Source: a virus. From it: a stretch of DNA of 39,045 bases. The stretch covers positions 1 through 39,045 of IMG/VR virus record IMGVR_UViG_3300027842_000001; one strand, written 5' to 3'. Positions 15,911 through 38,464 of this stretch are shown piece after piece (positions within the stretch are counted from its first letter, which is position 1; every line of letters starts with the position of its first letter). The notes under the pieces are model-generated. The model saw nothing but the letters and a program-made list of their open reading frames with translations, was not told the DNA's origin and searched no databases. The position numbers and the translations under genes were made by a program.

Positions 15911-16201
15911 TTACGTGTTCGTTGCGTTGAGTTTTCCGCTGATTTGTGCAGACGTCTGCACAGTCTGACGGCCGCGGCGGGTGTACTGGCGCACCGCGGA
16001 GCGGCGCCGGTCGGCCAGGTCGACCATCTGCCGCAGCGCCTCGGAGCGCGAGCTCGCGCGGTTGTGTGGGTCGGCGTGCCAGGCGTCGATTTTCGCCATC
16101 GTCGCGACGTCGAGCGTGAACGAATAGACGCGCGTCGCCGTCGCGGCCACCGTCGGGCGGCGCCCCGCTCCTGGCCGCCGCCCGCCCCGTTTGGCTTGCA
16201 T
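15911..16201 (-). CDS. Ribbon-helix-helix (CopG/Arc-like) DNA-binding protein
   Basis: RVYSFTLDVATMAKIDAW...SRSEALRQMVDLA fits beta-alpha-alpha. The 3-prime tail contains palindrome copy 15945-15962. Confidence 0.7.
   Translation of the reverse strand: MQAKRGGRRPGAGRRPTVAATATRVYSFTLDVATMAKIDAWHADPHNRASSRSEALRQMVDLADRRRSAVRQYTRRGRQTVQTSAQISGKLNATNT
15945..15962. repeat. 18-bp perfect palindrome TGTGCAGACGTCTGCACA, copy 1
   Basis: Exact; lies in the 3-prime tail of the RHH gene, read as VQTSAQ. Confidence 0.95.
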
Positions 16202-16215
16202 ATGAGCTATTCAAA
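16199..16215 (-). repeat. AT-rich 17-mer, partial (reverse complement TTTGAATAGCTCATATG)
   Basis: 11 of 11 match in the TTTGAATAGCT part; covers the RHH start codon. Confidence 0.6.
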
Positions 16216-16236
16216 CCGCGCGGGGCGTCGCGCCGC

Positions 16237-16434
16237 TCAGGATTCCGGCAGTTGTCGCGCGAGCGCCTCGAGGACGGCGATCGCCAGTGCCAGTTCGGCC
16301 AGCCGCGGCGCCCACCGCTCGCGATCGCGCGACACCAGGCCGCGGCGCTGGATCGAGGCGCGCCGCCGGCGCAGCTCGCGGACGGCGATTGCCAGCGCGT
16401 CGGGCAGCGACATCGACGACGTCGATTCGCTCAC
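16237..16434 (-). CDS. Hypothetical helical protein (65 aa)
   Basis: GTG 16434 overlaps the upstream TGA (GTGA). Confidence 0.5.
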   Translation of the reverse strand: MSESTSSMSLPDALAIAVRELRRRRASIQRRGLVSRDRERWAPRLAELALAIAVLEALARQLPES

Positions 16435-16640
16435 CGCGGCAGGCCTTCCCAACAACGCCAGTACGCATAGTCGCCGACGGCCGGATGCCAGCAACGGGTG
16501 TGCAGTTCGTCGTCGAGTGGCTCGAGGCACGAGTGGCACACGGCGCGTTGCAGGTGGTTCGGCTCGCCGTGAATGGCGCACCAGGCGCGTCGGTAGTTTT
16601 TCGGAGCGGCCGGCTCCGTCGATTCGGCAGCCTCAGACAT
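16431..16640 (-). CDS. Cys/His/Trp-rich small protein (69 aa)
   Basis: ATG 16640; WCAIHG...CHSC...CWHP...WRCW. Confidence 0.55.
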   Translation of the reverse strand: MSEAAESTEPAAPKNYRRAWCAIHGEPNHLQRAVCHSCLEPLDDELHTRCWHPAVGDYAYWRCWEGLPR

Positions 16641-16700
16641 GGCGGGAGATCCATTTCTGCGGGGAATTTCGCGCGGCCGTTGGCGCGGACCACGTGAAAC

Positions 16701-16717
16701 CATATTAGTGTTTCAAA
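16701..16717 (-). repeat. AT-rich 17-mer, degenerate (reverse complement TTTGAAACACTAATATG)
   Basis: About 11 of 17 match; in the intergenic region between the HNH gene and gene 16431-16640. Confidence 0.35.
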
Positions 16718-16733
16718 GGCATTCCGCCATCCG

Positions 16734-17249
16734 TCACATGGGGGTCTTGTGCCGGCGAAAGCGCGCTTCGGGCCAGCTCGCGTAGATGCTGCGCAGCACT
16801 GGGCCGAGCAGCCGCATCTCGTCGGCCGTAAAGGTGTTGCCTTTGACGTCGTTGCACGTCCAGCAGCACGGCGCGACGTTCCCCTCGACGTACCCCACGC
16901 CTGGCACGACCTGGTCGATGCTGCTGCGCCCCTCGATCCCGCAATAGGCGCACGGCTGGCGAACCAGCGAGACGAAGTCGGGAAGCTCGAGCTCCCAACG
17001 CTTGCCGTAGTGCCGAGCTCGCGAGCGGGCCAGCGTGAAGCGACGCCGTACCGGCGGACGGCCCGGGCTGCGCTGGTCGATCGCGAAGTACTCCGCCAGG
17101 TCGACCGCCGCGGTGTCGGCCGGCTTCCGCGGTCGCGACCGCAGCGACTCGGCGCGCCGCTGGCAGCGGCTTTTCTGGCATGTGCGCTGGCCGGGGTAGC
17201 GCGGCACCAGGTCGTTACCGCACCCCTCGCAAACGATCGTGTTCGGCAT
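16734..17249 (-). CDS. HNH-like endonuclease with N-terminal zinc ribbon
   Basis: CAYCG...IDQVVPGVGYVEGNVAPCCWTCNDVKGN fits the HNH pattern, but Gln replaces the first His. N-terminus has CEGCG...C..SRC. Confidence 0.65.
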   Translation of the reverse strand: MPNTIVCEGCGNDLVPRYPGQRTCQKSRCQRRAESLRSRPRKPADTAAVDLAEYFAIDQRSPGRPPVRRRFTLARSRARHYGKRWELELPDFVSLVRQPCAYCGIEGRSSIDQVVPGVGYVEGNVAPCCWTCNDVKGNTFTADEMRLLGPVLRSIYASWPEARFRRHKTPM

Positions 17250-17751
17250 GCCTCGCAAGGGTCGGTTGAGGCCGCGTCACAACGCCGCTTCGACCGGATT
17301 TCAAATGCGCTACAGCTCCGCGGCACCCCCTTCTCGGCCGTGACCTCCCCGAGATCAAAAACGCCAATCCTGGTGACTTTTGCCAATCGTGAAACATCTA
17401 CACTCCTGGCGGCTACGGTCCCCGGCGGGTTTGGTTCGGGAGATCCTTTCCTCGGCGTGGGCCGTCGCTTCGGTGCGGGGACCGTTGGCGCGGTGTCCGC
17501 TGCCAGGCCGTCGCGGGCGTGACCTCGCGGCGGCCCCCCTCACCCCCGGCGCTCGTCGGGTCATGTTTGATCGCGCTTGTAGCCGCGGCGCACGCTGCGC
17601 CTGTCGGGTGTGGCCGGCGGCGCCGAATAGTCGCGCGATCGAGGCCACACCTTCGGCCGAGCGGCAAACCAACCCCCCAAACGACCAAACAAGAGCGCGG
17701 CGCCGACGGCAACTCCCGCCACATCCGCACACGCCCGGAGGCCAAAAAGCC

Positions 17752-18327: not shown

Positions 18328-18337
18328 GGGGGGTCCC

Positions 18338-19369: not shown

Positions 19370-19373
19370 AGCG

Positions 19374-19469: not shown

Positions 19470-19472
19470 GCG

Positions 19473-20306
19473 GTGGCGACGGGCGATCGACCACGCGCGC
19501 CGGATGGGCGCCGCGGCGGGCCTATCCCTGTCGGTGAACCTGCCGCGGAGGACCGCGACCAGGTGGCCGAGCTGGCCAGGCAGGCGGCCGAGCGCCGCCA
19601 GCGCGAGCTCGAAGAGCAGCAGGCCGCGGCCGAACCCGCGGGCGTGCCGCCGAGTGACGACCAGCGCCAGGCGATCGACGCGCTACGCGATCGCTCGGCC
19701 GAGCTGCGCGCACCAGCAGCTCGAGCGCTGCGCCGCCAGCCGGTCGCGATTGGCACGGTGTACGACGACGAGCGCGAGGACGTCGAGGACCTGCACGCGG
19801 ACGCCCGCGAGGCACGCCTCGACGAGCTCAAAGAGCGCGGCATCGTCGACCCCGCGCTCGAGCACGAATCGGCCGGCTTCGATCCCGAGCTGCCAGGCCT
19901 GCCCGGGCACGAGCTGTACGGCGTCTTTACGTGTCCGAATTGCGGAGCGCCTGTCGAACGGGCCTTCCCCGGCTACGTCGATTGGGACCTCGCCTCGCGC
20001 GACCTGGTCTGCCACCAGTGCGGCGGCCTGGTCAAACGTGGCGGCGCCGCGGCCGAAACGGAAGCCGAAGCCGAGCCCGAGACTGTGCAGACGTCTGCAC
20101 AGACGGCACAGAGCGCACAGACAGGCGAGGCGCTGCCTACCGGCGAACCTGGCACGTACAACCCGCCGCCGCTGAGCGCCGACGAACGCGCCGAGCTCGA
20201 GCAGCTCCGCCGCGAGCGTGCCGAACGTGAGGCGGCGGCCAGCTCGCCACCGCCACCCGAGCCAGCCGCGGAGCAGCAAACAACCGAAGAGCCGCCGAGC
20301 GGGTAG
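19473..20306 (+). CDS. Acidic coiled-coil protein with central zinc ribbon
   Basis: CPNCG...CHQCG; contains palindrome 20084-20101 plus a 9-bp tandem extension. Confidence 0.6.
   Translation: MATGDRPRAPDGRRGGPIPVGEPAAEDRDQVAELARQAAERRQRELEEQQAAAEPAGVPPSDDQRQAIDALRDRSAELRAPAARALRRQPVAIGTVYDDEREDVEDLHADAREARLDELKERGIVDPALEHESAGFDPELPGLPGHELYGVFTCPNCGAPVERAFPGYVDWDLASRDLVCHQCGGLVKRGGAAAETEAEAEPETVQTSAQTAQSAQTGEALPTGEPGTYNPPPLSADERAELEQLRRERAEREAAASSPPPPEPAAEQQTTEEPPSG
20084..20101. repeat. 18-bp palindrome, copy 2
   Basis: Exact; read as VQTSAQ; followed by GCACAGA x3 with 9-bp period (20097, 20106, 20115). Confidence 0.95.
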
Positions 20307-20315
20307 CGGGCCGCG

Positions 20316-24677: not shown

Positions 24678-24695
24678 TGTGCAGACGTCTGCACA
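24678..24695. repeat. 18-bp palindrome, copy 3
   Basis: Exact; in the intergenic gap 24595-24747. Confidence 0.95.
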
Positions 24696-27680: not shown

Positions 27681-27683
27681 GGG

Positions 27684-28208
27684 ATGGCGCGAGGCGGTGT
27701 CGATCCGATCGTGCGCTACCTGGTGCTCGGCGGCCTCGGCTATGCCGGCTGGTCTTGGGCCAGCGCGCAACCCGCCGACTCGTGGGCGCGCCAGATGATC
27801 GACCAGGCGCGCGGCTTCCTGAAACACCCGACGTTGCCGGGCAGCAGCTCGTCGACGTCGTCGAGCTCGTCGACGACGCCCGCCGCGCCAAGCGCCCCCG
27901 CCATGCTGCCCGGGCATTGGTACGGACCAGGCGGCAAGGAAGTACCCGCCCCGGCGCCGATCCCCACCGACCAGCCGATGCAGCCGACCTCGCTCGTCGA
28001 CGTCGGCGGCTTCCCGATTGTCATGGACCCGAACCAGGACGCGCTCCGCCAGGATCCGGCACAGGGCGGCACGAACGTGTACGGGCCCGGCGACGTCCTG
28101 GTCGACTCCAACACGCAAGCGCAGTACGTGATTGTCGCGGGCCGCGGCGGCGTCATTTTGCAGGGCCCGGACGGCGCCTACGTCGCTTCGGATGATTTCT
28201 TCGTATGA
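27684..28208 (+). CDS. Paralog family member C (N-terminal TM, C-terminal GGFP domain)
   Basis: VRYLVLGGLGYAGWSWA; GGFPIVM...QDPAQGGTNVYGPGD. Confidence 0.7.
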   Translation: MARGGVDPIVRYLVLGGLGYAGWSWASAQPADSWARQMIDQARGFLKHPTLPGSSSSTSSSSSTTPAAPSAPAMLPGHWYGPGGKEVPAPAPIPTDQPMQPTSLVDVGGFPIVMDPNQDALRQDPAQGGTNVYGPGDVLVDSNTQAQYVIVAGRGGVILQGPDGAYVASDDFFV

Positions 28209-28468
28209 CCGACCAGCAACTCGGCAGCGCGAACTACACGCCTGGCACGGGCGATTTCTCGGGTGACGATCTCAGCGCCGCCGGCGCACAGCTCCAATCG
28301 GGCGACACGGCCAAACTGGCGCTTACGTTCCCGCTGCCGATTAGCGGCATCCCCGCCGACGGCATCGCCGCGGTGCTAAGCCCGATCTTCGGCCTCTTCG
28401 GCCAGACGTTGCTCGGCGTCGACTTTGACGGTGACTCAACCCTGGTGCTGGTGTGGAGGGTCGGCTAA
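28205..28468 (+). CDS. Hypothetical protein (87 aa)
   Basis: ATGA overlap; track ORF. Confidence 0.6.
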   Translation: MTDQQLGSANYTPGTGDFSGDDLSAAGAQLQSGDTAKLALTFPLPISGIPADGIAAVLSPIFGLFGQTLLGVDFDGDSTLVLVWRVG

Positions 28469-28783
28469 ATGCCTGCGTTGCTGGCGCTCATTCCGGAGAT
28501 CATCGACGCGCTGGCGGCGTTCATCGGCGCGACCTGGTGGCAACTGCCGGTGCTGGTAACGCTCTTCAAAGTCGGCGCGCAAGTGACGGAGCCGATTCCG
28601 CAGCCAGCCGGCCAACAATCGCCGGTGCAACAGGCCGCCAGCGGCGCCGCACAGGCCGCCTCGGGCGTCGGCTCCGCGGTCGGTGGAACGGCTCAGGCGG
28701 TCGGCGGCTTCGGCCAGTTTCTCTCACAAAATCCCTGGCTGGTGGTCGGCGGCATCGTCGCCATATTCGTACTTCGGAGGTAA
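28469..28783 (+). CDS. Membrane protein (104 aa, two TM segments)
   Basis: ATG directly after the upstream TAA; hydrophobic N- and C-terminal segments. Confidence 0.65.
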   Translation: MPALLALIPEIIDALAAFIGATWWQLPVLVTLFKVGAQVTEPIPQPAGQQSPVQQAASGAAQAASGVGSAVGGTAQAVGGFGQFLSQNPWLVVGGIVAIFVLRR

Positions 28784-28786
28784 CGG

Positions 28787-28803
28787 TTTGAATGGCTATT
28801 AGC
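28787..28803 (+). repeat. AT-rich 17-mer TTTGAATGGCTATTAGC
   Basis: Read directly; contains ATG 28792. Confidence 0.85.
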
Positions 28804-29025
28804 GCTGCGCCCGCGCTCGAGCCGCTCCGACCGAAGGGGCTCGAGCTGACACACGTGTCGATCGTTCCCGAGCAGGGCGGCACCGGCCGTTTTTTGGTGA
28901 ATCGTCACTTTGTTGTGCGCGAGGCCGAAAGTAAGTACCCGCTCCAGGAGTCATGGGAGGGCCGCGGCTTCGGCGAGGCGCTCGAGCTGGTCCAGAAAAT
29001 CATGGCGATGGAGGGTCTGCGGTGA
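28792..29025 (+). CDS. Hypothetical protein (77 aa)
   Basis: ATG lies inside AT-rich 17-mer copy 28787-28803. Confidence 0.6.
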   Translation: MAISAAPALEPLRPKGLELTHVSIVPEQGGTGRFLVNRHFVVREAESKYPLQESWEGRGFGEALELVQKIMAMEGLR

Positions 29026-29240
29026 GCTCGTTGCCTCCGCCGGCCATGCCGCCAGGGCTATCCGCGGCGGACTACGCCGCAGCGCAGCAGCGAAATCAGG
29101 TGATGCTCGCGGGCGTGCTCGGCGGTGGTGCATTCATCGGCTACGAGCTGCTCGGCGGCATGCAGGGGGCGCTCATTGGCGCGGCTGGCGCGTACATCGG
29201 TCTAAAGCTGCTCGGCGATGCGATGTGGGGCAACGGCTGA
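29022..29240 (+). CDS. Gly-rich membrane protein (72 aa)
   Basis: GTG 29022 overlaps the upstream TGA; VMLAGVLGGGAFIGYELLGG... Confidence 0.55.
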   Translation: MSSLPPPAMPPGLSAADYAAAQQRNQVMLAGVLGGGAFIGYELLGGMQGALIGAAGAYIGLKLLGDAMWGNG

Positions 29241-29244
29241 ACTT

Positions 29245-30228
29245 GTGGGCCTGTTCGACTTCCTGCGGCCGAAGCGTCGACGACGGCGCCGAGCTGTGCA
29301 GACGTCTGCACAACGGCCGCGCTATCGACCTGGTGAACGCGCCAAGCGCTACCTCGAGCGGGTGGCCGAGCTCGAGGACCTCGAGCAGCGGCGACGTGCC
29401 CAAAAACGCACTACGCGGCCCGCTGGACCACGCGCCACACGCGACGACGATCCGACGGTCGAGATTCCGAAGAGCGTCCAGCGCGAAGCCGAGCGCCGAT
29501 TTCAGGCACGCCAGCGGGCCGAGCGCGAGGCGGCCGAGAAACGGCGCCGCCAGGAGATCCGCGAGCGCGAGCGGGCCGCGCGCGGTGAGGCGCGCATGAT
29601 GGCCAGGGCCGAGAAGGCGCGAGCTCGCGCGATCGACGCCTACATGGCGAACGGCGCCACCCGCGCCGAGGCCGAGCAGCTCTACGACCGCGAGCCGGAT
29701 TGGTCAACCTACGACTTCAACCCGCGGCGCCGCGGTGTACGGCATCGCAGCTGGCCACGTCGCCGTACAAACCCGCTGCCGCCCGTGGTGGGCGAGATCG
29801 CTAAGGACGTGCTGAAAGGTGGCCTAATCGCCGCGGCACAGGAAGAGGCCAAAGCCCGATGGCGCGCAGCTCGACGACGTCGCAATCCGGCGCGCCTCGA
29901 GCCGAACCACCCGGACGAAAAACTGCGGGACATGAGCCGTCGGTTTCACGGCCGACCCGATCAAATCCTGCACCTTGACGCGGACCAGCGCCGCCCGCCG
30001 CCGCAGCACGTCGTACTGATCGGCCACGAGCGGGCGACGGTCTATCGCACGCCGCGGAGCTCCGAGCGCTCAGGCGCCGATTGGGAGCACGAGGCGGGCG
30101 ATCGCGGCATGTTGCGGCGCAACGCCAGCGGGCGCCGGATCCTGGTCGCCGACGAGCGCGGCCGGGTGTATCTGCTACAGGGCAGCTCGTCGATGCGATT
30201 CGACCCCGACCAGGGGCTCGTCGGGTGA
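29245..30228 (+). CDS. Arg-rich RRNP-motif protein
   Basis: GTG 29245; palindrome 29295-29312 sits at codons 17-23. An alternative start near GTG 29361 would make the palindrome intergenic. Confidence 0.6.
   Translation: MGLFDFLRPKRRRRRRAVQTSAQRPRYRPGERAKRYLERVAELEDLEQRRRAQKRTTRPAGPRATRDDDPTVEIPKSVQREAERRFQARQRAEREAAEKRRRQEIRERERAARGEARMMARAEKARARAIDAYMANGATRAEAEQLYDREPDWSTYDFNPRRRGVRHRSWPRRRTNPLPPVVGEIAKDVLKGGLIAAAQEEAKARWRAARRRRNPARLEPNHPDEKLRDMSRRFHGRPDQILHLDADQRRPPPQHVVLIGHERATVYRTPRSSERSGADWEHEAGDRGMLRRNASGRRILVADERGRVYLLQGSSSMRFDPDQGLVG
29295..29312. repeat. 18-bp palindrome, copy 4
   Basis: Exact; 55 bp after the stop at 29240; read as VQTSAQ if the gene starts at 29245. Confidence 0.95.
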
Positions 30229-30244
30229 AAGGAGAGGCCACGCA

Positions 30245-30406
30245 ATGACATGGACACTTGAAGCCGCGGGGCACAAAGACGCCGACTATGACGAGGGCTA
30301 CGCCGAAGTCAAAGAGGCGCTGCGCGAGCTAGTGCGCAAACTCCGCGAAGCCGGCCACACCGTCAGCGTGCACACCGTCAACGACCAGGACGTCGAGGCG
30401 CAGTAG
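30245..30406 (+). CDS. Small acidic protein (53 aa, below the track cutoff)
   Basis: AAAGGAGAGG upstream of ATG 30245; hand translation MTWTLEAAGHKDADYDEGYAEVKEALRELVRKLREAGHTVSVHTVNDQDVEAQ. Confidence 0.5.
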   Translation: MTWTLEAAGHKDADYDEGYAEVKEALRELVRKLREAGHTVSVHTVNDQDVEAQ

Positions 30407-30417
30407 GCGAGGGGGCT

Positions 30418-31560
30418 ATGGCCAGCGCTGCCGAGATGCTCGACGAGATCCGCCGCCACTTCGCGGCGCACCCGTCGGGCATGGTGCAAGTGACGACCAT
30501 GACGCGGGCGACGCGCTACCGCTCGCCTGAGTGGTTCCGCGTCTCGAGCAAGGGCAACCTTCAAGTACGCCGCGGCCGAACGTGGGAGCAGATCTCGATG
30601 GGGGGTACGCCACTGGTCGGTATCCGCCTCTTCAACCCGCGCAAAAAGAAGCGCCGCGGGGCTGGCGAGTGGCAGCCGGACCTCTTCGGAGGCCGCGGCA
30701 TCGAGCGCCCCGACGCATTCGCGCCGGGCCTCAGTCGCGCCGAGCAGCTCGAGCTCGCCCGCGAAGAGATGCGCGCCACCGGCTCGCGCGACCTGTTCGA
30801 CTTCATGGCCGACCAGCCACCGCGGCGCAATCCGCGCTATGTGCTGCGCCTCGACGAGGATAACTACTGGCGCGCGTGGGACACGAAGCACAAGCGCTAC
30901 TCCCCTCACGTGCTGCAAATCGTGAGGCGTAAGGCATTCCGCCAGGTGAAGGAGCTCAACGCCGACGCCGAGCGCCCGCCTGAGCGCCGCTGGCTCGAGC
31001 ACAACCCGCGGCGGGTGACCTATCGGCAGGTGGTCGAGGCGTGGGACCGCGGCAACCGCGGCCGGGCGCGCCAGCTCGCGGAGCGGGTGACCGATCCCGC
31101 CGAGCGGCGGCTCGCCGAGCGGTTTCTCGAGTCACGGCGCGCCAACCCTGCGGAGCTCGAGCGCAACCCGCGGCCGAGCGACTACTCGCGCGAATCGGCC
31201 GAGCAACTGCGGCGGCGCCTCTACTTCTGGCGGCCACAAATCCGCGCGTACCGGGCCTCGGGTGACCCCGACGAGCAACTCGAGTCGATGGCGCGCACAG
31301 TAGAGCGCGAGCTCGCCCGTCGACGACGCAGCCGTCGGCCCAACCCCGCGGACACGCCCGAAATGCGCTACCAGCGGGCCATCGGCCACGGTGAGCGATT
31401 GGCGACGGCTCGGAAGGCTGCCGCGAACCCGGGCCGCGCTACGGGGCGCATGGCGCCGAATTGCCCCATGTGCGGCGCGCTGGTGCGCCTGCCGAATCCG
31501 ATCCCGCCGCGGGTGACATGCCACAACTGCGGCACTCCGTCGCTGGTGCGCCGTCCTTGA
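30418..31560 (+). CDS. Arg-rich RRNP-motif protein with C-terminal zinc ribbon
   Basis: Six or more Arg-flanked NP motifs; CPMCG...CHNCG. Confidence 0.7.
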   Translation: MASAAEMLDEIRRHFAAHPSGMVQVTTMTRATRYRSPEWFRVSSKGNLQVRRGRTWEQISMGGTPLVGIRLFNPRKKKRRGAGEWQPDLFGGRGIERPDAFAPGLSRAEQLELAREEMRATGSRDLFDFMADQPPRRNPRYVLRLDEDNYWRAWDTKHKRYSPHVLQIVRRKAFRQVKELNADAERPPERRWLEHNPRRVTYRQVVEAWDRGNRGRARQLAERVTDPAERRLAERFLESRRANPAELERNPRPSDYSRESAEQLRRRLYFWRPQIRAYRASGDPDEQLESMARTVERELARRRRSRRPNPADTPEMRYQRAIGHGERLATARKAAANPGRATGRMAPNCPMCGALVRLPNPIPPRVTCHNCGTPSLVRRP

Positions 31561-31604
31561 GGGCGGCCGATCGGCGCCCCGTGAGGGCGCGGGAGGGAGA
31601 TCCA

Positions 31605-31748
31605 ATGTCGCGCTATCTGACGTTTTCCCGATTGCTGGTGCTGGCGGCGCTCATAGTCGCCGTGCTGGCGGCGTTTCACGTGCCCGCGCCCGTCGACCTG
31701 GTGGCCTCAGCGCTGGCGCTGTATTTCGCCTCGCTCCTGGTGCCGTAA
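31605..31748 (+). CDS. Tiny membrane protein (47 aa, two TM segments)
   Basis: GGGAGGGAG upstream of ATG 31605; MSRYLTFSRLLVLAALIVAVLAAF... Confidence 0.5.
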   Translation: MSRYLTFSRLLVLAALIVAVLAAFHVPAPVDLVASALALYFASLLVP

Positions 31749-31756
31749 ACGCCCGC

Positions 31757-32119
31757 ATGTACCACGGTTTGACGATCGGCGCGTTTTTGGGGCTCTTGTG
31801 TGGCTTGTCCCCAATGCGACAAGTGAGGCGCAACCCCGACACCGCGACCGTGCTCCTGGTCGGCCTCGGCCTGCTGCTGCTGCTCCGATCGCGCGGCGCC
31901 CGACTGTTCGGCGCCTCGAGCAGCCCGGCGCCGCTCTTACCGCCGAGCTACTCAGGCTGGCCGAGTGTATTCCCGCAGATGGCCACCGAAGGCGCCGCGT
32001 GCACGACCAGCAACGGCCAGCCGGGTACGTGGCATCGCGTCGAGTTTGGCGCGGTGCAGGTTGGCGGCATTCCGCAGCAATGGATTTGCTGGCCGCGGGG
32101 GGTCCCGATCACCGTATGA
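31757..32119 (+). CDS. Membrane protein (120 aa)
   Basis: Two hydrophobic segments separated by RQVRRNP. Confidence 0.55.
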   Translation: MYHGLTIGAFLGLLCGLSPMRQVRRNPDTATVLLVGLGLLLLLRSRGARLFGASSSPAPLLPPSYSGWPSVFPQMATEGAACTTSNGQPGTWHRVEFGAVQVGGIPQQWICWPRGVPITV

Positions 32120-33081
32120 CCGACCCGGTGCGGCTGCTCGAGCTCGGCGCCGACATGCTGCGCTCGCGGCGCGGCGACCAGGACGCCCGCGGGCGACTGA
32201 TGCGCAACGCGCTACCGCTGGCGGCCGATTATCTGATACGCCCCGGCGCAGGGCGGCTACTCGAGCGCGGCCTCGAGACATTGCGCGACGTCGCCGCGGA
32301 GGAAGGCTGGCGGCTGCCGGGTGGGCTCGCGACCATCGGCGAGGGCGACCCGCTGCCGAATTACGAGCCGTTCGTCGAGCGCCTGGTCGCCGCCCCGTTC
32401 GGCTTCTACACGATCATGGGCGAGCCAGGCACGGGTAAAACCGTGCTCGCGTTGCGGCTGGCGCAGCGCATCGCCGAAGAGCACGGCTACCAGGTTGTCT
32501 CAGTCGGCGGCATGCACCCCGACGACCGGCGCAAGTGGAAAACCGACGAGTGGATCCAGCTCGAGGCGCCCGGCGCGTTCGTCAAAGCGATGGACGCCGT
32601 AGCCGAAACGATGGTGACCGCGCGTGTCCACCGCCACCGCCGCGAGCTCACCGGGCGGGTGATTCTGCTCGACGACGCGATTATGACCGCGCACATTTCC
32701 GCCAAACGTTTCAACCAGTCGCTTACACAGGCCTGGTCGATCTATCGGCATCTCGATTGGGTGGTGCTGCTCACTGCGCGCATGTTCCGCGCGCTAACGA
32801 CCATTGCCGAGAACGCCGACGCGCGATTCTTGAAACGGCCCGACTGGCAGCAACTCTCGAGCGAGCGCGACAAAGCGCGCTTTTGGTGGCGCGACGCCGA
32901 GGCAGCCTACAAGGGGCTGCGCCACTCTGCCGACTGGCAGACCCGCCCACGTGAGCGGGAATGGATCTACGTCCAGGCGCCCGGGCTGCGCTACACGGGC
33001 CTGATGCCGTACAGCACGCCGGAGCCACCGACGACGACGCTCGTCCTCGATCCCGTGCCACCCGATCGGGAGACGCTATGA
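32116..33081 (+). CDS. P-loop ATPase, candidate genome-packaging ATPase (FtsK/HerA-like or Zot-like)
   Basis: ATGA overlap. Walker A MGEPGTGKT, Walker B RVILLDDA. Flanked by small membrane proteins. Confidence 0.75.
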   Translation: MTDPVRLLELGADMLRSRRGDQDARGRLMRNALPLAADYLIRPGAGRLLERGLETLRDVAAEEGWRLPGGLATIGEGDPLPNYEPFVERLVAAPFGFYTIMGEPGTGKTVLALRLAQRIAEEHGYQVVSVGGMHPDDRRKWKTDEWIQLEAPGAFVKAMDAVAETMVTARVHRHRRELTGRVILLDDAIMTAHISAKRFNQSLTQAWSIYRHLDWVVLLTARMFRALTTIAENADARFLKRPDWQQLSSERDKARFWWRDAEAAYKGLRHSADWQTRPREREWIYVQAPGLRYTGLMPYSTPEPPTTTLVLDPVPPDRETL

Positions 33082-34289
33082 GCCCCGCGGCGCTGCTGGT
33101 GCTGGTCGCGCTCGGGTACTGGTACTTGTCGACGCGGCGTACCCGCCGCAGGCCTGCACGCAACCCGTACAACCCGCGACGGCGAAAAGGCGATCGCTGC
33201 TTTGCCTGCGGTCGGCCGCTCCGCACGGGTGACGTCCGCTGGCTCATGCCGACCGGGTCGGGGCCGCGGGTGGTGTTGTGCCAGTCGTGCGCCGACGAGC
33301 TCGTCGAGCGGCGCGAGGCACGCGGCGAAAGCGGGCCGGCACTGCGCCGACTCTCGAACCCGCGACGTCGTCGACCTGGTGCTGCTGGCCAGCTCGCGCT
33401 CCCCGAGACGCCGGCGGCCTACCCGGTGGTTCACGTGGCGGGCGGCGGCAAGCTGCCCAACCGCAAAAGGCAGCCGTTTTGGGTGTTCGCGCAATGGGCC
33501 GGCGTGAGCGCGAATGACTCGCGCTGGTTTACGCACGATCCGGTCGGCCGCGCTTTCTCGAGCTACGCCGAGGCGGCCGACGTCGCCCGCGACTTCGCAC
33601 GGCGCCAGGGCGGCGTGTTCGAGCCGTCGCGCGAGGCGCGCCACGAGCTGCTCAGGAACCGCAACCCGCGGCGCTTGTGCCGGTGCGGATCCGGGGCCCC
33701 GTGCAAAAACCCGTATACGCAGGCCTGCGCGCTGCCCGGTGGCCACGTCTACGATTTCACCGCGGGCGGGCGCTGTCAGTGTTGCGGACGCATGGCGCCG
33801 CGGCGCACCGTCGAGCTCGAGTCGCGAGCTGGTGAGCATGCGCGCTACGGCCGAACGTGCGCGGCGCGGTCGATCGGCACTACCAAACTGCGGACCAATC
33901 AGCTCGAGCACATGGAGCGCGAGGCGGAGCACCGATCGGCCCGCGAGGCGCACTACCGCGGCGCTGGTCGGCAGGCCTCGGGCATCGTGCGCCCGACATT
34001 CGCGCGGGGCTGGTCGGAGGCCGAAATCGTGGAGCTCGCGCGGCGGGTCGGGGAATCGCCATTCGAGCCTCACTGGTGGCTGTCGCAAACGGCAAACCTG
34101 GTGCCGGCGCATTACGAGCTGACGCCGCAGGGACGCCGCTACGTGCCAGCCACGGGCGAGTACCGGCGCTTTGTGCTCGAGGGTGGCCAGCGGACCAAAC
34201 GGCGCCGCGGCGCTGGCAGCTCGGCGCGATCGGCGCGGCCAGCTCGAGCTCGAGCCTACGCGCGACCTGGTGATGACCTCCCGTGGTGA
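33078..34289 (+). CDS. N-terminally anchored Arg-rich RRNP-motif protein with CxxC pairs
   Basis: ATGA overlap; LLVLVALGYWYL TM; ARNPYNPRRRKG, SNPRRRRPG, NRNPRRLCRCG. Confidence 0.7.
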   Translation: MSPAALLVLVALGYWYLSTRRTRRRPARNPYNPRRRKGDRCFACGRPLRTGDVRWLMPTGSGPRVVLCQSCADELVERREARGESGPALRRLSNPRRRRPGAAGQLALPETPAAYPVVHVAGGGKLPNRKRQPFWVFAQWAGVSANDSRWFTHDPVGRAFSSYAEAADVARDFARRQGGVFEPSREARHELLRNRNPRRLCRCGSGAPCKNPYTQACALPGGHVYDFTAGGRCQCCGRMAPRRTVELESRAGEHARYGRTCAARSIGTTKLRTNQLEHMEREAEHRSAREAHYRGAGRQASGIVRPTFARGWSEAEIVELARRVGESPFEPHWWLSQTANLVPAHYELTPQGRRYVPATGEYRRFVLEGGQRTKRRRGAGSSARSARPARARAYARPGDDLPW

Positions 34290-34292
34290 CCG

Positions 34293-35330
34293 ATGCCTGA
34301 GCGCTACTGGCTGACGTTCACGACGCGCCACCGCCACGGTCGGCCGACGCAAGAGCCGGTGTACTACCAGCGCGAGGGCGATCGCTGGCGGCTGTACTTC
34401 GGCAAGAGCGGGCGGCGCCGCGCCGTCGGCACCGAATCGGACGCCGCGGTGCGCTGGCAGGTCGACCTCGCCAAATCGGAGGGGCGCTTTGTACGGCACG
34501 AGCCCGACCAGGGCCGCATGTTCAACCCGCTAGTGCGCGGCTACTCCCGCGGGGCGATCGCCGCCAACATTCGGCGCGAGATCCACGCCGGCCGCGACCA
34601 GGACCAGGCCGTCGCGATCGCGCTGGCCACCGCCCGCCGCGCCTACCGCTCACGCCACCCGCGCGGCCGACTCCCCGCTCAGCTTCGGAGGAATCCGCCC
34701 ATGCACAACCCGCTTTATGGCGCCGAGGCCGCAAAGGTGATGCGCCGAATGGACCAGGCGCAGCGCGAGCTCGACCTCGCCTCACGCGAAGCCCGCGGGT
34801 CAGACGATCCCGAGGTACGGCACTACGCGCGCAAACGACGGGACCGGCTCATACGCGAGCTGGCCCGCTTGAGTCGCCGCCTGCATTGGGAGAACCCCGC
34901 GCGACGTCGCAACCCGGCGGAGATCGCCAAGCTACAGGCCGCCATGCTGCGCGAGGAAGCCCGCTACGACCGCACAGCGGACCTCTACCGCTACGACGAC
35001 CGCACGAGCGCCAGGGTGCGCGTGATGAAGGCGGCCGGCCAGCGCGATCGCGCGCAGAAAGCCGTTTACGACGCAATGCGCCGAGGCGCCAACCCCCGCC
35101 CGACCCGCGGCCCGCTCGACCGCCTCGAGGCCTACAGCGTGCGCTCGATGCGGCGCGCCGCTCGCGGAATCAGCGAGGTTCCCGAGAGGCATCGCGGCAT
35201 CTCCATGCGGGCGCTGGCGCGTCGGCGTCGACGACGCAACCCCAACCGTGGCGAGTGGATAGACCTCCTGGTGCCGCTGGCGTTCCTGGTGCTGCTGATT
35301 CGCGGCCGAACGATTCAAGTCGGCGCCTGA
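34293..35330 (+). CDS. Arg-rich RRNP-motif protein with C-terminal TM
   Basis: LRRNP, ARRRNP, RRRRRRNP; C-terminal WIDLLVPLAFLVLLI. Confidence 0.7.
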   Translation: MPERYWLTFTTRHRHGRPTQEPVYYQREGDRWRLYFGKSGRRRAVGTESDAAVRWQVDLAKSEGRFVRHEPDQGRMFNPLVRGYSRGAIAANIRREIHAGRDQDQAVAIALATARRAYRSRHPRGRLPAQLRRNPPMHNPLYGAEAAKVMRRMDQAQRELDLASREARGSDDPEVRHYARKRRDRLIRELARLSRRLHWENPARRRNPAEIAKLQAAMLREEARYDRTADLYRYDDRTSARVRVMKAAGQRDRAQKAVYDAMRRGANPRPTRGPLDRLEAYSVRSMRRAARGISEVPERHRGISMRALARRRRRRNPNRGEWIDLLVPLAFLVLLIRGRTIQVGA

Positions 35331-35333
35331 CTC

Positions 35334-35350
35334 GCTAATAGCTATTCAAA
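35334..35350 (-). repeat. AT-rich 17-mer (reverse complement TTTGAATAGCTATTAGC)
   Basis: Read directly; intergenic, just upstream of the dyad and the serine recombinase. Confidence 0.85.
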
Positions 35351-35370
35351 CTGTCACGCGATTGCAACGC

Positions 35371-35430
35371 CTGGTTACCGTCATATCGCACCGCTGCCGA
35401 ATAGCATACGCACCATATGACAGTAACCAG
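35371..35430. promoter_or_regulatory. 60-bp dyad overlapping the serine recombinase start; candidate attP or autoregulatory operator
   Basis: CTGGTTACCGTCATAT (35371-86) versus ATATGACAGTAACCAG (35415-30): 15/16 complementary, 28-bp spacer. Confidence 0.45.
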
Positions 35431-36862
35431 TGTGCAGACCCGCGCCCGCGCCGGTGTGACCTACGCCGTCGGCGTGATCCGCGTCTCACAGCAAGGCAAG
35501 CGCGAAGCCGAGCGCTTCAAGTCACCGTCTGAGCAGCGCGACCGCATCGCGGCCGAGATCCGCCGCCAGGGCGCCGAGCTGGCGCAGTGTTTCCAAGAGA
35601 TCGACATTTCGGGCAAGCTGCCCCTCGCCAGGCGACACGGCCTCCGCCAAGCGGTCGAGGCGATCGAGGCGGGGCACGCGCGGGTGCTCGTGGTGGCCTA
35701 CTTCGACCGCCTGGTGCGCAATCTGCGCGTTCAGGCCGAAGTCGTACAGCGCGTCGAGGCGGCGGGCGGGCGCGTGCTGGCGCTGGACTTCGGGGAAGTC
35801 ACCGAAAAGACGGCCGCGCAATGGTTGAGCTCGACGCTCATGGGCGCCGTCGCCGAGTACTACGCGCGGTCGGTCGGTGAGCGGCTGGCCAGCACCGCGG
35901 CTATGGCGATCGCCTCGGGCGTGCCGGTGGGCGCGCTGCCGCCTGGCTATCGCCGCGACCCTGCCACCCGCCGCGTGGTGCTGCACGAGGCCGAGGCCGC
36001 GGTGATGCGCGAGGCCTTCGCGATGCGCGCCGACGGCGCCTCCTGGTCGGCCGTTCGCGGCTTCATGGCTGCAAATGGCATTGTTCGGTCGATCGGCAAC
36101 ACGCGGACACTGCTGCACTCGCGTACCTACCTGGGCGAGCTGACGCTCGGCGACGTGGTGAACCCGGGTTCGCATACTCCGCTGGTGGACCTCGAGACGT
36201 TCGAGCGCATCGGCCGCCAGAAAGGCGAGGCCTTCAAAGCGGCGCCCGGGCGCAAATCCGAATTGCTGCTCTCAGGCCTGCGGCTGCTCAGGTGCGCCAC
36301 GTGCGGGCATTCGCTCCTGGCCAGCACACAAACGACGCGCTTCGGTAAATCGTTCAGGTTGTACCGCTGCAATCCGGGCCTGGTCTGCTCGCGGCGCGTG
36401 GCGATCGACGCCGCGCTGGCCGACCAGGCGGTGACCGACTACGTGCGCGAGCTGGTGGCCAACGACGCCGAGACAGAGGGGCCCGGTATGGAGCTGATCG
36501 AGGCGCGGGCCGCGGTGGATGCGGCACAGGCCGCGCTCGATACCGCGATCCGCGGCTACATCGCGGCGGGCGTGCTCGACGAGGCCAGCGCGCAACAGTC
36601 GCTCCGCGAGCTGCGCGAGAAACGCGACGCGGCGGCCGATCGGGCATCGGATCTCGAACGCGCCGCCCGTGCGGTCGGGGACGGCATTACGCTCAACGGC
36701 TCGGCCGATTGGGACGCGCTAACGCTGGCCGATCGACGGGAGATCATTACCGCCGTGCTCGCCCGCGTCGTCGTCGCGCCCGGCGGCGGGAAGGTCCGCG
36801 GCGCCTCGCGGCTGACGTTCGTCACTGTTCGCGACGAGCTCGGCGGCGACGCGCTCGGCTAG
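35417..36862 (+). CDS. int: Large serine recombinase (integrase)
   Basis: N-terminal resolvase domain YAVGVIRVSQQGK (catalytic Ser), recombinase domain, zinc ribbon CATCGHSL...YRCN, coiled-coil tail. Confidence 0.9.
   Translation: MTVTSVQTRARAGVTYAVGVIRVSQQGKREAERFKSPSEQRDRIAAEIRRQGAELAQCFQEIDISGKLPLARRHGLRQAVEAIEAGHARVLVVAYFDRLVRNLRVQAEVVQRVEAAGGRVLALDFGEVTEKTAAQWLSSTLMGAVAEYYARSVGERLASTAAMAIASGVPVGALPPGYRRDPATRRVVLHEAEAAVMREAFAMRADGASWSAVRGFMAANGIVRSIGNTRTLLHSRTYLGELTLGDVVNPGSHTPLVDLETFERIGRQKGEAFKAAPGRKSELLLSGLRLLRCATCGHSLLASTQTTRFGKSFRLYRCNPGLVCSRRVAIDAALADQAVTDYVRELVANDAETEGPGMELIEARAAVDAAQAALDTAIRGYIAAGVLDEASAQQSLRELREKRDAAADRASDLERAARAVGDGITLNGSADWDALTLADRREIITAVLARVVVAPGGGKVRGASRLTFVTVRDELGGDALG
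35431..35439. repeat. Palindrome half-site TGTGCAGAC
   Basis: 9-nt left half at codons 5-8 of the serine recombinase, abutting the dyad. Confidence 0.6.
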
Positions 36863-37016
36863 GATGCGGCGCGCCGCGCGGCGCAGCACCGCCCGCACGC
36901 GAGCGTGAGCGGAGGGTGGCAATGGATCGGCGGCCATGTGTGGCCAGTATGGCGCCGGGGTCCGGTGGGAAACCATCGAAGCCCCGGCGCCTCTCGCGTT
37001 TGAAACGCGATTGTGT

Positions 37017-37034
37017 TGTGCAGACGTCTGCACA
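37017..37034. repeat. 18-bp palindrome, copy 5 (20 bp with flanking T/A)
   Basis: Exact; lies between the convergent recombinase and hydrolase genes. Flanked by palindromes TCGCGTTTGAAACGCGA (36996-37012) and CCGGCGCGCGCCGG (37037-37050). Confidence 0.95.
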
Positions 37035-37144
37035 AACCGGCGCGCGCCGGCGATCGCGCGACGGTCGGGCGGCTGGTCTGCTAGTTTGGCGCGGCTTGTC
37101 GCGGCGGGTGCACCGGGGGCGGGTACACCGTTCCGGCCGCCCGA

Positions 37145-37894
37145 CTAGCCCCCGGCGACGATCGGCGCGAGCAGCGGCGCGTAAGCCGGTCTGAGTAGCG
37201 CCGAGTGATTGGTCCATGCGTCCGACGGGTCCGTCGCCGTGAACACGTAAGGCGTATCGCCAGGGATCTCCTGCTGCACCGGCTGTAGGGCGATATCGAC
37301 CGTGTTGACGACCACCCGCACGTCGACGCCGAGGCCGCGCTCCCACGCCTCGAGCTGGCCAAGATAATCAGACCAGCCCGGCGCGGTGCTGCGGTCGAAA
37401 AGGTCGCTCGCCGCGGGACAGGCGCCGCGCGTGAATGCGTAGCTCAGCAATTCCGTACCGCTGACCCCCTCGAGCGGCGCGTCGATGGGGACCACGCGCT
37501 CGACGAAGCCGGCCAGGTCGGGCGCCGCGGCCAATGCAAACAGGGCGACAACGCCACCGTTCGAGTGGCCGACCAGGATCACGCGGTCGACCTGGTGCTG
37601 CGCGCGGAGCTGCTCGAGGTACATCGCCAGCGCCGCGACCGACTGGCCGAGCGGCTGGCACGAGCCCGCGGCGCCATAGTCAAAGGCGCTGAAATTCGAA
37701 ATGCCACGCGCGCCGAGCTGGTCGGACAGCGGCGTAAAGGCGGCCTGCGTCGAGGCCGCGGTCGAGCCGAGGCCGCCCACGAAAACGACCATTTCGGAAG
37801 GTGCGGCCGCCGCGGGTTGTGCAGACGTCTGCACAAACAGGGCGAGCGCGAGTGTGAGGCCTGCTGGCCAGCTGCGGAACCGTACAAAGCGCAT
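37145..37894 (-). CDS. Secreted alpha/beta-hydrolase (lipase/esterase-like)
   Basis: Signal peptide MRFVRFRSWPAGLTLALALFVQTSAQP; nucleophile elbow VILVGHSNGG (GxSxG); ATG 37894. Confidence 0.8.
   Translation of the reverse strand: MRFVRFRSWPAGLTLALALFVQTSAQPAAAAPSEMVVFVGGLGSTAASTQAAFTPLSDQLGARGISNFSAFDYGAAGSCQPLGQSVAALAMYLEQLRAQHQVDRVILVGHSNGGVVALFALAAAPDLAGFVERVVPIDAPLEGVSGTELLSYAFTRGACPAASDLFDRSTAPGWSDYLGQLEAWERGLGVDVRVVVNTVDIALQPVQQEIPGDTPYVFTATDPSDAWTNHSALLRPAYAPLLAPIVAGG
37818..37835. repeat. 18-bp palindrome, copy 6 (20 bp with flanking T/A)
   Basis: Exact; encodes the VQTSAQ c-region of the hydrolase signal peptide. Confidence 0.95.
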
Positions 37895-38021
37895 GAGGGG
37901 GGCGGGAGATCCTTTCAGGCGAGCGGCAACTCTAGCGCCAAAAACACGAATTGTGTAGGTGCTGCACCGGCGGCGCTCGGCCCACACAATCAAACGCCGC
38001 TCCGGCGGCCGTCTAGCGGAG

Positions 38022-38032
38022 TGTGCAGACGT
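38022..38032. repeat. Palindrome left part TGTGCAGACGT (11 of 18)
   Basis: At the 5-prime edge of the LAGLIDADG ORF. Confidence 0.8.
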
Positions 38033-38418
38033 GCGAAGCTGTCCTAGTGCCACCCTCGCCTACTGATTTGGCGTACCTCGCAGGGCTCATCGACGGCGAG
38101 GGATGTCTTACAGCGAGCCCCGTTTGTCCCCCTCTGCGTTACTGGATGGGGCTGCGTGTGACGACGACAAACGCCGACCTCGCTAGTTGGCTTGAGGAAA
38201 CCTTCGGCGGTCGCATCTACCCGTGGAACCCCCGAGACCGGCGCCGTGCTTACAACTGGACGCTCACGGGTAAACGGGCCGCCGTGATGCTCGAGGCCAC
38301 ACTCCCCTATCTCCGAGTGAAGTCGCGGCCTGCACATGCATGGCTCGCCTTCTGGCGGCTGGCCCCGGCGGCACGTCGAACGGCCGGGGAACTTCGAGCT
38401 GCCATCCGCGCAGCGTAG
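38023..38418 (+). CDS. Single-motif LAGLIDADG homing endonuclease
   Basis: LAYLAGLIDGEGC near the N-terminus, then W.L.G...A..ML..TLPYLRVK, typical of the family; alternative start GTG 38047. Confidence 0.8.
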   Translation: MQTCEAVLVPPSPTDLAYLAGLIDGEGCLTASPVCPPLRYWMGLRVTTTNADLASWLEETFGGRIYPWNPRDRRRAYNWTLTGKRAAVMLEATLPYLRVKSRPAHAWLAFWRLAPAARRTAGELRAAIRAA

Positions 38419-38457
38419 GCGACTCCCCGACGCCCGCCGGGGCGAACGTGCAGACGT
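38033..38457 (+). mobile_element. Candidate 425-bp insertion carrying the LAGLIDADG gene, flanked by 10-bp direct repeats GTGCAGACGT
   Basis: Deleting 38033-38457 in silico restores a perfect TGTGCAGACGTCTGCACA. Confidence 0.4.
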
Positions 38458-38464
38458 CTGCACA
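38448..38464. repeat. Palindrome copy 7 (17 of 18; outer T replaced by C)
   Basis: 30 bp after the LAGLIDADG stop, 23 bp before the holin-like ATG. Confidence 0.9.

Follow-up and report, generated by a model that had tools for sequence, protein, structure and literature searches.

A palindrome shared by unrelated phages and a methyltransferase-fused helix-turn-helix domain as its candidate binder

Several described systems scatter short, near-identical sites for a DNA-binding protein over a replicon. The sites of ParB (parS) and of KorB from the IncP plasmid RK2 (OB) are perfect, CG-centred palindromes of 13–16 bp that are dispersed, some of them lying in coding sequence or in or near the gene of the binding protein; specificity is set by a few residues of the helix-turn-helix (HTH) helix, and the site sequence is conserved across distant taxa. 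The stoperators of cluster A mycobacteriophages, the CIR sites of phiC31 and the 17-bp dyad repeats of cluster O phages repeat one short sequence 10–35 times per genome, mostly at gene boundaries; stoperators and CIR sites are bound by a phage regulator and are conserved among related phages, the stoperators being asymmetric and oriented. Here we describe a perfect 18-bp palindrome, TGTGCAGACGTCTGCACA, in a viral DNA of 39,045 nucleotides (IMG/VR record IMGVR_UViG_3300027842_000001, positions 1 to 39,045; the whole of this stretch is called the window below). As with parS and OB, the window has several near-identical CG-centred palindromes, some of them in coding DNA, and as with stoperators and CIR sites, many identical sites occur in one phage genome with a bias to gene boundaries.

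Our favoured, still tentative, explanation is that the copies of the palindrome are the cognate sites of a DUF3102/PHROG-15609-type HTH domain fused to a methyltransferase that the same virus encodes, the binding itself being predicted from sequence comparison. What is new here is this candidate binder family, the methyltransferase fusion, a series of paired helix and site alleles, and the finding of one 16-mer common to unrelated phages of different phyla, in which it often marks module junctions.

The palindrome, its copies and their conservation

Rescanning both strands of the window returned the palindrome at all six positions where a first-pass annotation had reported exact copies (15945, 20084, 24678, 29295, 37017 and 37818), along with the left half-site TGTGCAGAC at both of the places given for it, 35431 and 38022, the second of which extends to 11 nt (TGTGCAGACGT). 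The 17/18 copy of that annotation also exists, but it starts at 38447 (38447–38464, CGTGCAGACGTCTGCACA) and not at 38448, which is where its intact 16-mer core begins, the mismatch being the first base. No further match with three or fewer mismatches was found on either strand of the window. Dinucleotide shuffles predict 0.02 matches against the seven observed, and seven were reached in none of 100 shuffles, in keeping with the earlier judgement that chance recurrence is negligible. The copies and partial copies are listed here with their gene contexts, which were taken from public gene calls on the same contig (JGI soil metagenome, ENA assembly; ORF, open reading frame).

15945–15962: copy 1, exact; in the final 17 codons of the ribbon-helix-helix (RHH) gene, at the 3' end of a leftward operon
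20084–20101: copy 2, exact; in the low-complexity linker of gene 19473–20306, read VQTSAQ
20097–20121, plus strand: GCACAGA three times at a 9-bp period, prolonging the right arm of copy 2 and encoding TAQSAQT
24678–24695: copy 3, exact; in an intergenic gap of 153 bp, 84 nt past the stop at 24594 and 53 nt before the start at 24748
29295–29312: copy 4, exact; its internal GTG is the called start codon of gene 29296–30228
35431–35439, plus strand: left half-site TGTGCAGAC, 14 nt inside the serine recombinase ORF (MTVTSVQTR)
37017–37034: copy 5, exact; between the convergent serine recombinase and hydrolase genes
37818–37835: copy 6, exact; in the signal-peptide codons of the alpha/beta hydrolase gene 37145–37894 (minus strand)
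38022–38032, plus strand: 11-nt left part TGTGCAGACGT, broken, immediately upstream of the LAGLIDADG gene
38447–38464: copy 7, 17/18; intergenic, 29 nt past the stop of the endonuclease ORF and 22 nt before the ATG of the holin-like gene 38487–38792

The first four copies are separated by 4139, 4594 and 4617 bp, as had been stated, and the copies are confined to 15.9–38.5 kb: there is none in 1–15.9 kb, again as stated, and hence none in the early, mostly minus-strand arm (2.7–14.4 kb). A 127-bp direct repeat at the two ends of the window (1–127 and 38919–39045) indicates that the window is a complete circular genome of 38,918 bp, on which an endolysin-like gene starts at 38793, crosses the circle junction and ends at 804. 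The copies span about 58% of this circle, which corresponds to P ~ 0.58^7 = 0.02 if placement is independent. The G+C content of the window is about 70%, and no near relative of it was found among GenBank phages.

Comparison of 52 near-copies in the motif-bearing loci that we examined (designated by L numbers) placed almost all differences at positions 1 and 18, so that the conserved core is the 16-mer GTGCAGACGTCTGCAC, interpretable as a pair of GTGCAG(A) half-sites that lie one turn of the helix from each other, on either side of the central CG. Sequence flanking the motif shows no conservation across loci. The variation at positions 1 and 18 alters the encoded peptide, which upholds the first-pass view of a DNA-level element as opposed to a peptide motif. 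Coding copies nearly always read VQTSAQ/H and lie in Pro/Ala-rich linkers, N-termini or C-terminal tails, so coding sequence does, as proposed, tolerate the motif chiefly in this frame and in such linkers and tails. Within the window the VQTSAQ reading was correctly assigned to the RHH tail, gene 19473–20306 and the hydrolase signal peptide, while copy 4, for which it had also been claimed, sits at a called GTG start. The accompanying claim that the Cys frames are never used is true inside the window but not elsewhere, the CADVCT frame being used, and used only, in the Zn-ribbon codons A(D/N)VCTDP of prophage ParB genes, which require a Cys. The GCACAGA triplet beside copy 2 is present at the 9-bp period described; it belongs to low-complexity coding sequence, however, and looks like local slippage rather than an array of binding sites. 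Frame calling from G+C at third codon positions over 217 copies was too noisy and was not used.

The positions of the copies can outlast the sequence around them. Copy 2 is retained with an exact core in a relative whose capsid-like protein is 96% identical (L298), and at 17/18 in one at 86% identity (L216), where flank identity is about 74%; L216 also has an exact copy 17 nt beyond the stop of its RHH homologue, in otherwise unalignable DNA. Copy 3 is not conserved in L216, and more distant relatives of the window (52–53% identical) are without the motif. Elsewhere, the motif recurs in the C-terminal tail of the terminase in many divergent prophages, at non-identical positions, and more than 10 Oxalobacteraceae prophage loci keep it at the same site in the tail of a small gene although their flanks have diverged. 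Syntenic retention despite flank drift, together with recurrence across lineages, shows that it is the DNA sequence that is under selection. Of the non-redundant copies, about 28% precede a likely gene start by no more than 60 nt. In one locus (L119) four copies, of the motif or resembling it, are clustered like an array in a non-coding stretch of 320 bp.

The motif is phage-associated, common to hundreds of unrelated phages, and is not a host-wide repeat. Among the GTDB reference genomes, one per species (185,579 species, 596 Gb), the exact 18-mer occurs in 88 stretches, against a rough chance estimate of about 10 (4^18 positions, uniform composition). These host hits amount to 2–4 stretches per genome at most and are grouped within prophage-sized intervals of about 40 kb; for example, all three stretches on the 6.8-Mb chromosome of Pseudoduganella R-43 fall inside 5.312–5.352 Mb. 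Most of the GTDB stretches are in Oxalobacteraceae (Duganella, Massilia, Janthinobacterium, Pseudoduganella, Undibacterium). A generic host repeat of the repetitive extragenic palindrome (REP) type, the outcome that the first-pass annotation had named as speaking against its proposal, is thus not what we found, as the motif is too rare and too phage-clustered in host genomes. In IMG/VR at least 117 stretches carry the 18-mer, mostly on contigs of 30–45 kb with 2–4 copies each, and the motif is also multi-copy in low-GC elements. Some 30–36 of the motif-bearing loci belong to lambda-like prophages, which encode a GpA terminase, an HK97-type capsid, CII and a primase, together with a ParB_N+HTH_ParB protein of 700 aa. 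Six degenerate copies are found in Variovorax phage VarioGold (L212, OP296522), whose published description does not mention the repeats; a BLAST search with a 30-nt query returned only VarioGold plus a few weak matches, and the 18-mer was not found in the literature searched.

The phages that carry the motif have little else in common with the window. No common proteins were found by tblastn between the window and 205 motif-bearing loci, the only phmmer matches being the methyltransferase N-terminus and a weak serine-recombinase match, and comparison with the VarioGold proteomes gave no real protein in common. Relatives of the window virus were sought in IMG/VR through the capsid-like protein or the methyltransferase, with none found, and in JGI metagenomes through gp33078, with none of use. 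One 16-mer is common to phages of Burkholderiales, Firmicutes-like, Acidobacteria-like and high-GC hosts, which belong to different phyla. A sequencing-adapter or assembly artefact was considered and rejected: the motif is in frame in ORFs, syntenic in independent isolates and clustered in prophage-sized host intervals.

Other palindromes were seen in passing. The window has a second perfect 18-bp palindrome, CGTCCGGACGTCCGGACG, at 10077–10094, also with a GACGTC centre, at the junction of a DnaC/IstB-like gene and the gene upstream of it; about 0.6 such palindromes are expected at this G+C, and it may be due to chance. On a Curvibacter contig (L138) another 16-bp palindrome, CTTGGCTCGAGCCAAG, occurs eight times in a span of 8 kb, which may represent a further dispersed-site system.

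A candidate binder encoded by the methyltransferase gene

The two features on which the proposal of a cognate binder turns lie in the early arm of the window.

10756–12183, minus strand: candidate binder gene; N-terminal ~190 aa DUF3102/PHROG-15609-like HTH plus N6_N4 DNA methyltransferase with an SPPY motif
11962–12000, minus strand: putative recognition helix LSRRSVYNALAAA, residues 62–74; the homologous helix co-varies with an in-gene palindrome in low-GC phages

The C-terminal part of the product is an N6_N4 methyltransferase (Pfam 3e-23), and its SPPY motif presumably marks an N4-cytosine enzyme. The N-terminus matches PHROG 15609 (E 5e-5 and 3e-4) and, by phmmer, the ~330-aa HTH and coiled-coil proteins of motif-bearing low-GC phages (6.5e-8 with the L101 protein), which match PHROG 15609 as well. 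Pfam DUF3102 is below threshold for the window protein and gives sub-threshold matches for the low-GC proteins; a hidden Markov model (HMM) of the family recovers the window ORF, the window sequence having itself been part of the model. No homologue of the N-terminal domain was found at E 1e-3 in a set of 5.8 billion proteins, and DUF3102 has three mentions in the literature searched, all incidental and none of them functional.

In the low-GC phage genes a perfect 22-bp palindrome of the form TTTGTG-N10-CACAAA lies about 13 codons after the putative recognition helix, and over 53 loci, in 6–8 alleles, the helix and the inner 10 bp of the palindrome change together:

Helix RRNVYNYI(A/S): palindrome TTTGTGCAGACGTCTGCACAAA, inner part CAGACGTCTG, which is the motif described here; L101, L247 and L161 (the L161 protein is only 64% identical)
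Helix RRQVYRYIE: palindrome ..GTGTCCCCGGGGACAC.., inner part TCCCCGGGGA; 20 loci
Helix RRQVYRMID: palindrome ..GTGACATCGATGTCAC.., inner part ACATCGATGT; 3 loci
Helix RRQVYSYIN: palindrome ..GTGCAGTCGACTGCAC.., inner part CAGTCGACTG; 1 locus
Helix RRQVYSYIQ: palindrome ..GTGCACTCGAGTGCAC.., inner part CACTCGAGTG; 1 locus
Helix RQNVYKYIK: palindrome TGTCTCCTCGGGGAGACA, inner part TCTCCTCGGGGAGA (imperfect); 5 loci

The window helix, RRSVYNAL, shares VYN with the first of these, and this putative helix allele, the nearest to the window's, is the one that pairs with exactly the window palindrome. Independent support comes from genes of the same or a related kind beside the motif in other loci, and from the array-like cluster in L119. 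In L012 a DUF3102-like gene lies 267 bp from it, and in L149 and L136 such a gene is truncated exactly at the motif. YhcG-like nucleases have a related domain, DUF1016_N, and in L140, L155, L150 and L132 (Opitutaceae and Saprospiraceae contigs) the motif is found in it at the corresponding place, read IVQTSAQL.

Two further observations were made on these loci. DUF1016_N is fused to two different nucleases, an SNase in L140 (791–1915) and a YhcG PD-(D/E)xK nuclease in L155 (3787–4935), and L155 and L150 have a second, symmetric variant of the motif (GGGCAGACGTCTGCCC and GGTCAGACGTCTGACC) about 40–50 bp from it. In a set of low-GC phages (L021 at 9100–9760, L003, L014, L019, L055, L091 and L100), a mini CRISPR (clustered regularly interspaced short palindromic repeats) array with type I-C-like repeats (..CACGAGGGCGTGGATTGAAA) is followed by four to five different perfect palindromes of the form TTTGT-N-ACAAA, all of them CG-centred; two of these palindromes each precede a repeated unit of about 100 nt, and the whole region is bordered by a CI-like repressor gene on one side and by RHH and integrase genes on the other.

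Several results weigh against the methyltransferase domain as the binder. The helix of L012 is unlike RRNVYN despite adjoining the same motif, and the allele KKVQVYSYIK occurs with two different palindromes. Helix and palindrome are only about 13 codons apart, so that a co-inherited mosaic patch could mimic co-variation. The assignment of the recognition helix rests on weak ParB-HTH similarity (Pfam HTH_ParB E 0.1; hhalign E 0.037 and 0.12, of low probability but in a consistent register), and a single-sequence AlphaFold model of the HTH domain was unusable, with a predicted local distance difference test score of 45. The methyltransferase gene of the window has no palindrome at the homologous codons. 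In the Burkholderiales prophages, the largest motif-bearing lineage, no DUF3102-like gene was found in the 1.2 Mb examined; they have the ParB_N+HTH_ParB protein instead, the relation of which to DUF3102 is not significant. Palindromy also runs on into the flanks of the motif, with a probability of about 0.5 at each step where 0.26 is expected, and there are many symmetric variants, with related loci carrying other perfect palindromes at homologous positions, a pattern that also fits a hairpin or a template-switch origin.

If the methyltransferase-fused domain is nevertheless the binder, the following picture would result. A dimeric HTH domain would recognise the 18-bp palindrome through its core GTGCAGACGTCTGCAC, the helix allele setting the preference for a site (RRNVYNYI versus RRQVYRYIE for GCAGACGTCTGC versus GTCCCCGGGGAC), and the window methyltransferase would bind its seven sites as a dimer. 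Docking would carry the fused amino-methyltransferase to those sites, and thereby place it where genes start, where operons end and where transcription units of the late, virion and accessory region meet; there it might mark or protect sites, modulate expression or take part in genome organisation. The sites, as conserved islands, would then become recombination junctions between modules, and the LAGLIDADG homing endonuclease gene would have exploited one of them. Of the roles that the first-pass annotation had listed, an operator for a dimeric regulator is the best-supported class, while the best candidate for the binder is the N-terminal HTH domain of the methyltransferase and not the RHH protein, the XRE protein or the recombinases which had been put forward.

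A broader version of this idea is speculative and, to our minds, doubtful. It holds that HTH modules of the DUF3102/DUF1016_N type, possibly related to the ParB HTH, form an 'address-tag' system in which each reads an 18–22-bp palindrome, usually inside its own gene, and orthogonal helix–site alleles deliver different effectors. The effector could be a methyltransferase in the window, a nuclease (PD-(D/E)xK or SNase) in YhcG-like proteins and a coiled-coil in the low-GC phages; an HTH-methyltransferase and a LAGLIDADG nuclease acting on the same 16-mer could make up a pair resembling restriction-modification; and the tags could double as the long-postulated phage 'linker' sequences for module exchange.

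Should the predicted binding be correct, it would give the uncharacterised DUF3102 family its first function, sequence-specific docking with a readable helix-to-site code, and would provide a case of a methyltransferase that is brought to a few long sites by a domain of its own for DNA binding. The allele series (RRNVYNYI, RRQVYRYIE, RRQVYSYIN and so on) would amount to a set of possibly orthogonal protein–site pairs. One 16-mer at the module junctions of unrelated phages also bears on how mosaic phage genomes exchange modules at precise boundaries.

Other binders and other origins

Among the rival explanations, an RHH protein as the binder survives best, although we consider it unlikely. The window encodes one such protein beside copy 1.

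15911–16201, minus strand: RHH-type repressor-like gene; matches PHROG 4738 'transcriptional repressor', 2e-5

The palindrome would be the operator of this Arc/MetJ-type protein, and the dispersed copies would silence or punctuate late and accessory transcription in the manner of stoperators or CIR sites. Besides the repressor match, the motif lies in or beside the 3' end of the RHH gene in both the window and L216, though the C-terminal tails of the two proteins differ; Oxalobacteraceae prophages have an Arc-like RHH gene about 310 bp from a conserved copy; in the low-GC phages an RHH_1 gene adjoins the palindrome cluster; and the central 8 bp of the motif, AGACGTCT, are identical to the met-box consensus, which is the site of another RHH protein, MetJ. 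Phages often have small RHH genes, however, so adjacency to the motif is weak evidence. The beta-strands of the three RHH proteins are unrelated (YSFTL, AGLRLP and MTFRVP), none of ten small VarioGold proteins is an RHH protein, no co-variation of RHH and site was seen, and the 3' end of its own gene is an unusual place for an autoregulator to bind. Nor do the operators of classical repressors account for the motif: where CI/Cro genes exist (L009, VarioGold, L021), the intergenic operator sequences differ from it.

The next candidate is the endonuclease gene that stands beside the broken copy at 38022.

38023–38418, plus strand: single-motif (homodimer-type) LAGLIDADG homing endonuclease gene; phmmer against PDB gives I-MsoI at 4e-6 (residues 12–122), and also I-CreI

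The true start of the gene is probably the GTG at 38047. It stands alone in the accessory region, with the hydrolase gene on one side and the lysis genes on the other, and free-standing single-motif LAGLIDADG genes are an unusual type in phages. Homodimers of the I-MsoI and I-CreI kind cut 22-bp pseudo-palindromes with a 4-nt central stagger. If the palindrome were the recognition and cleavage site of this homodimeric enzyme, cutting would leave self-complementary ACGT overhangs, and the copies would therefore be cut-and-rejoin or break-repair junctions for cassette exchange between phages. The homology of the ORF to I-MsoI and I-CreI fits this; furthermore, the gene has on its left the 11-nt left part (38022–38032), which ends exactly after the central ACGT, and on its right, 29 nt beyond the stop, the 17/18 copy, the accessory region looks like a row of copy-bounded cassettes (serine recombinase, hydrolase, endonuclease), and in other lineages the motif is found at mosaic junctions. 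Even so, we regard a cleavage site as decidedly unlikely. Six or seven intact sites persist in the very genome that encodes the enzyme, no endonuclease homologue was found in 1.6 Mb of motif-bearing loci, and cleavage leaves the conservation of sites over long divergence unexplained. The search for homologues of the product found 33, which were aligned; on 27 phage contigs and 2 further contigs the homologous genes are accompanied neither by this motif nor by repeated palindromes, and with 29 contigs that have homologues and lack such repeats, a general tie between the endonuclease family and palindromes was rejected. The left part of a palindrome stands directly upstream of the gene, while downstream there is a full copy rather than a right half. 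As this 1.4-kb region holds three copies and one partial copy, any gene there would have copies as neighbours. We read the endonuclease gene as a homing gene that exploited, or merely landed among, conserved sites.

Somewhat less probable again is a selfish or recombination-only repeat with no regulatory role, either the site of a recombinase (serine or tyrosine, of the phage or Xer-like of the host) or a palindrome that spreads with cassettes. The motif is often at mosaic junctions: where pairs of occurrences have any flank similarity, it is one-sided in 58%, compared with 2.3% for random shared 18-mers, an imperfect control because exact shared 18-mers derive from more similar DNA. In other lineages an HNH gene immediately next to the motif is found in some loci and missing from others, and in L149 a segment with a toxin–antitoxin system and a tyrosine integrase is flanked by two 22-bp copies. 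Local duplications of the motif occur as well. Two unrelated lineages, that of the window and that of an Acidobacteria-like phage (L137 at 118–135 and L117 at 12182–12199), have a serine recombinase gene whose start is no more than 25 nt from a copy or half-copy; in the Acidobacteria-like phage the motif directly follows a stop, and after a further 22 nt comes the ATG of a large serine recombinase with 25% identity to the window's. Recombinase genes thus adjoin copies in three lineages, L149 included. On the other side, the motif centre is CG, which is self-complementary, and a palindromic central dinucleotide removes directionality for a serine integrase; this argues against a serine integrase site and disfavours the serine-recombinase crossover site that had been suggested by the first-pass annotation. 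No recombinase family is common to the lineages. The sites are stable at syntenic positions, including inside terminase and capsid genes, whereas a functionless repeat would be expected to decay as fast as its flanks.

Near other recombination genes of the window, the intergenic stretch 4044–4227 contains two copies of a 20-bp direct repeat, GCTCATTGGGACACCGCCCCG, beside GIY-YIG-like and tyrosine recombinase genes; these could be arm-type or att-related sites.

A nucleic-acid hairpin, as RNA stem-loop or DNA cruciform, acting as terminator or attenuator, as a stabiliser of mRNA ends or as a processing signal, appears distinctly improbable. In that case shared descent, or a factor that binds hairpins, would account for the conserved sequence. 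The palindromy extending past the 18-mer and the symmetric (compensatory) variants at homologous positions are in its favour, although template-switch mutation in quasi-palindromes yields symmetric changes without selection for structure. Several copies lie at operon ends or beside terminators, and the VarioGold copy at 5752–5775 is a 24-bp perfect palindrome followed by a T-run, TTTCTTTTTT, directly after the major capsid gene, a canonical terminator arrangement. In the window, by contrast, no copy is followed by a T-run, which speaks against the terminator role proposed in the first-pass annotation, and none was called as promoter or terminator in the regions scanned for these; a separate terminator-like hairpin with a T-rich run (36994–37010) ends 6 nt before copy 5. 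Rfam 15 has no match in the window at gathering score, many copies are inside essential ORFs, single-arm variants show no wobble bias, and a 16-mer kept unchanged from phylum to phylum is more than a simple hairpin would require.

A site for a host-encoded factor, with phages borrowing a regulator or nucleoid protein of the Burkholderiales type if the window shares that host range, is very improbable: both of the best-populated lineages (that of Oxalobacteraceae and that of Variovorax phage VarioGold) consist of Burkholderiales prophages and VarioGold has no phage protein in common with the window, but the exact motif is essentially absent from host chromosomes outside prophage-sized clusters and is multi-copy in low-GC elements too.

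Apart from these candidates, several proteins of the virion arm (26904–35330) have Arg-rich 'RRNP / NPxR' motifs, for example RRRRNPRP, RRRNPGKAK and RRANPAELERNPRP, and almost none of the virion-arm proteins matches Pfam or PHROG.

Comparison with known systems

In the Burkholderiales prophages the likeness to ParB–parS and KorB–OB includes the protein: a ParB_N+HTH_ParB protein is encoded there, with a conserved copy 0.4–1 kb upstream of its gene and a motif-like copy inside it. These are proteins of 700–770 aa with ParB_N, HTH_ParB and a Zn-ribbon (L009 at 3397–5517, L067, L090, and L212 at 27984–30299), and their in-gene copy, exact or degenerate, falls at the A(D/N)VCTDP codons. In the window, neither an HMM of 26 prophage ParBs run on all ORFs nor Pfam (about 50 proteins) detected ParB_N (CTPase, GxxRxxA box), and there was no match to a ParA/CbiA-type ATPase among the roughly 50 window proteins scanned. 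The site, at 16–18 bp, also differs from parS (16 bp) and OB (13 bp), its sequence being unrelated to theirs except for the central ACGT. Unlike ParB and KorB, moreover, the window domain is fused to a methyltransferase, and its similarity to HTH_ParB is not significant.

The stoperators, the CIR sites and the cluster O repeats each stay in one phage cluster, whereas the 16-mer described here spans unrelated phages of different phyla. The targets of I-CreI and I-MsoI are similar in being (pseudo)palindromes of 18–22 bp with a 4-bp centre and degenerate outer positions, and a homologous gene abuts a broken copy here; homing sites, however, are normally single and destroyed by insertion, while in the window six or seven intact copies remain beside the endonuclease gene. 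REPs and bacterial interspersed mosaic elements are likewise short, multi-copy palindromic repeats at gene boundaries, but REPs number hundreds per host chromosome and are intergenic only, in contrast to a motif that is nearly absent from chromosomes outside prophage-sized clusters and often found in ORFs. The met-box of MetJ is identical to the central 8 bp of the motif, and RHH genes are near copies in three lineages; yet met-boxes form tandem arrays in gammaproteobacterial promoters, whereas here there is a single box within a longer palindrome and no MetJ homologue was found.

Taken against these systems, the element fails as a ParABS system, as a REP, as an intrinsic terminator, as a classical homing site and as a serine-integrase att site. 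By analogy, what it resembles in function is a set of dispersed operator or centromere-like sites.

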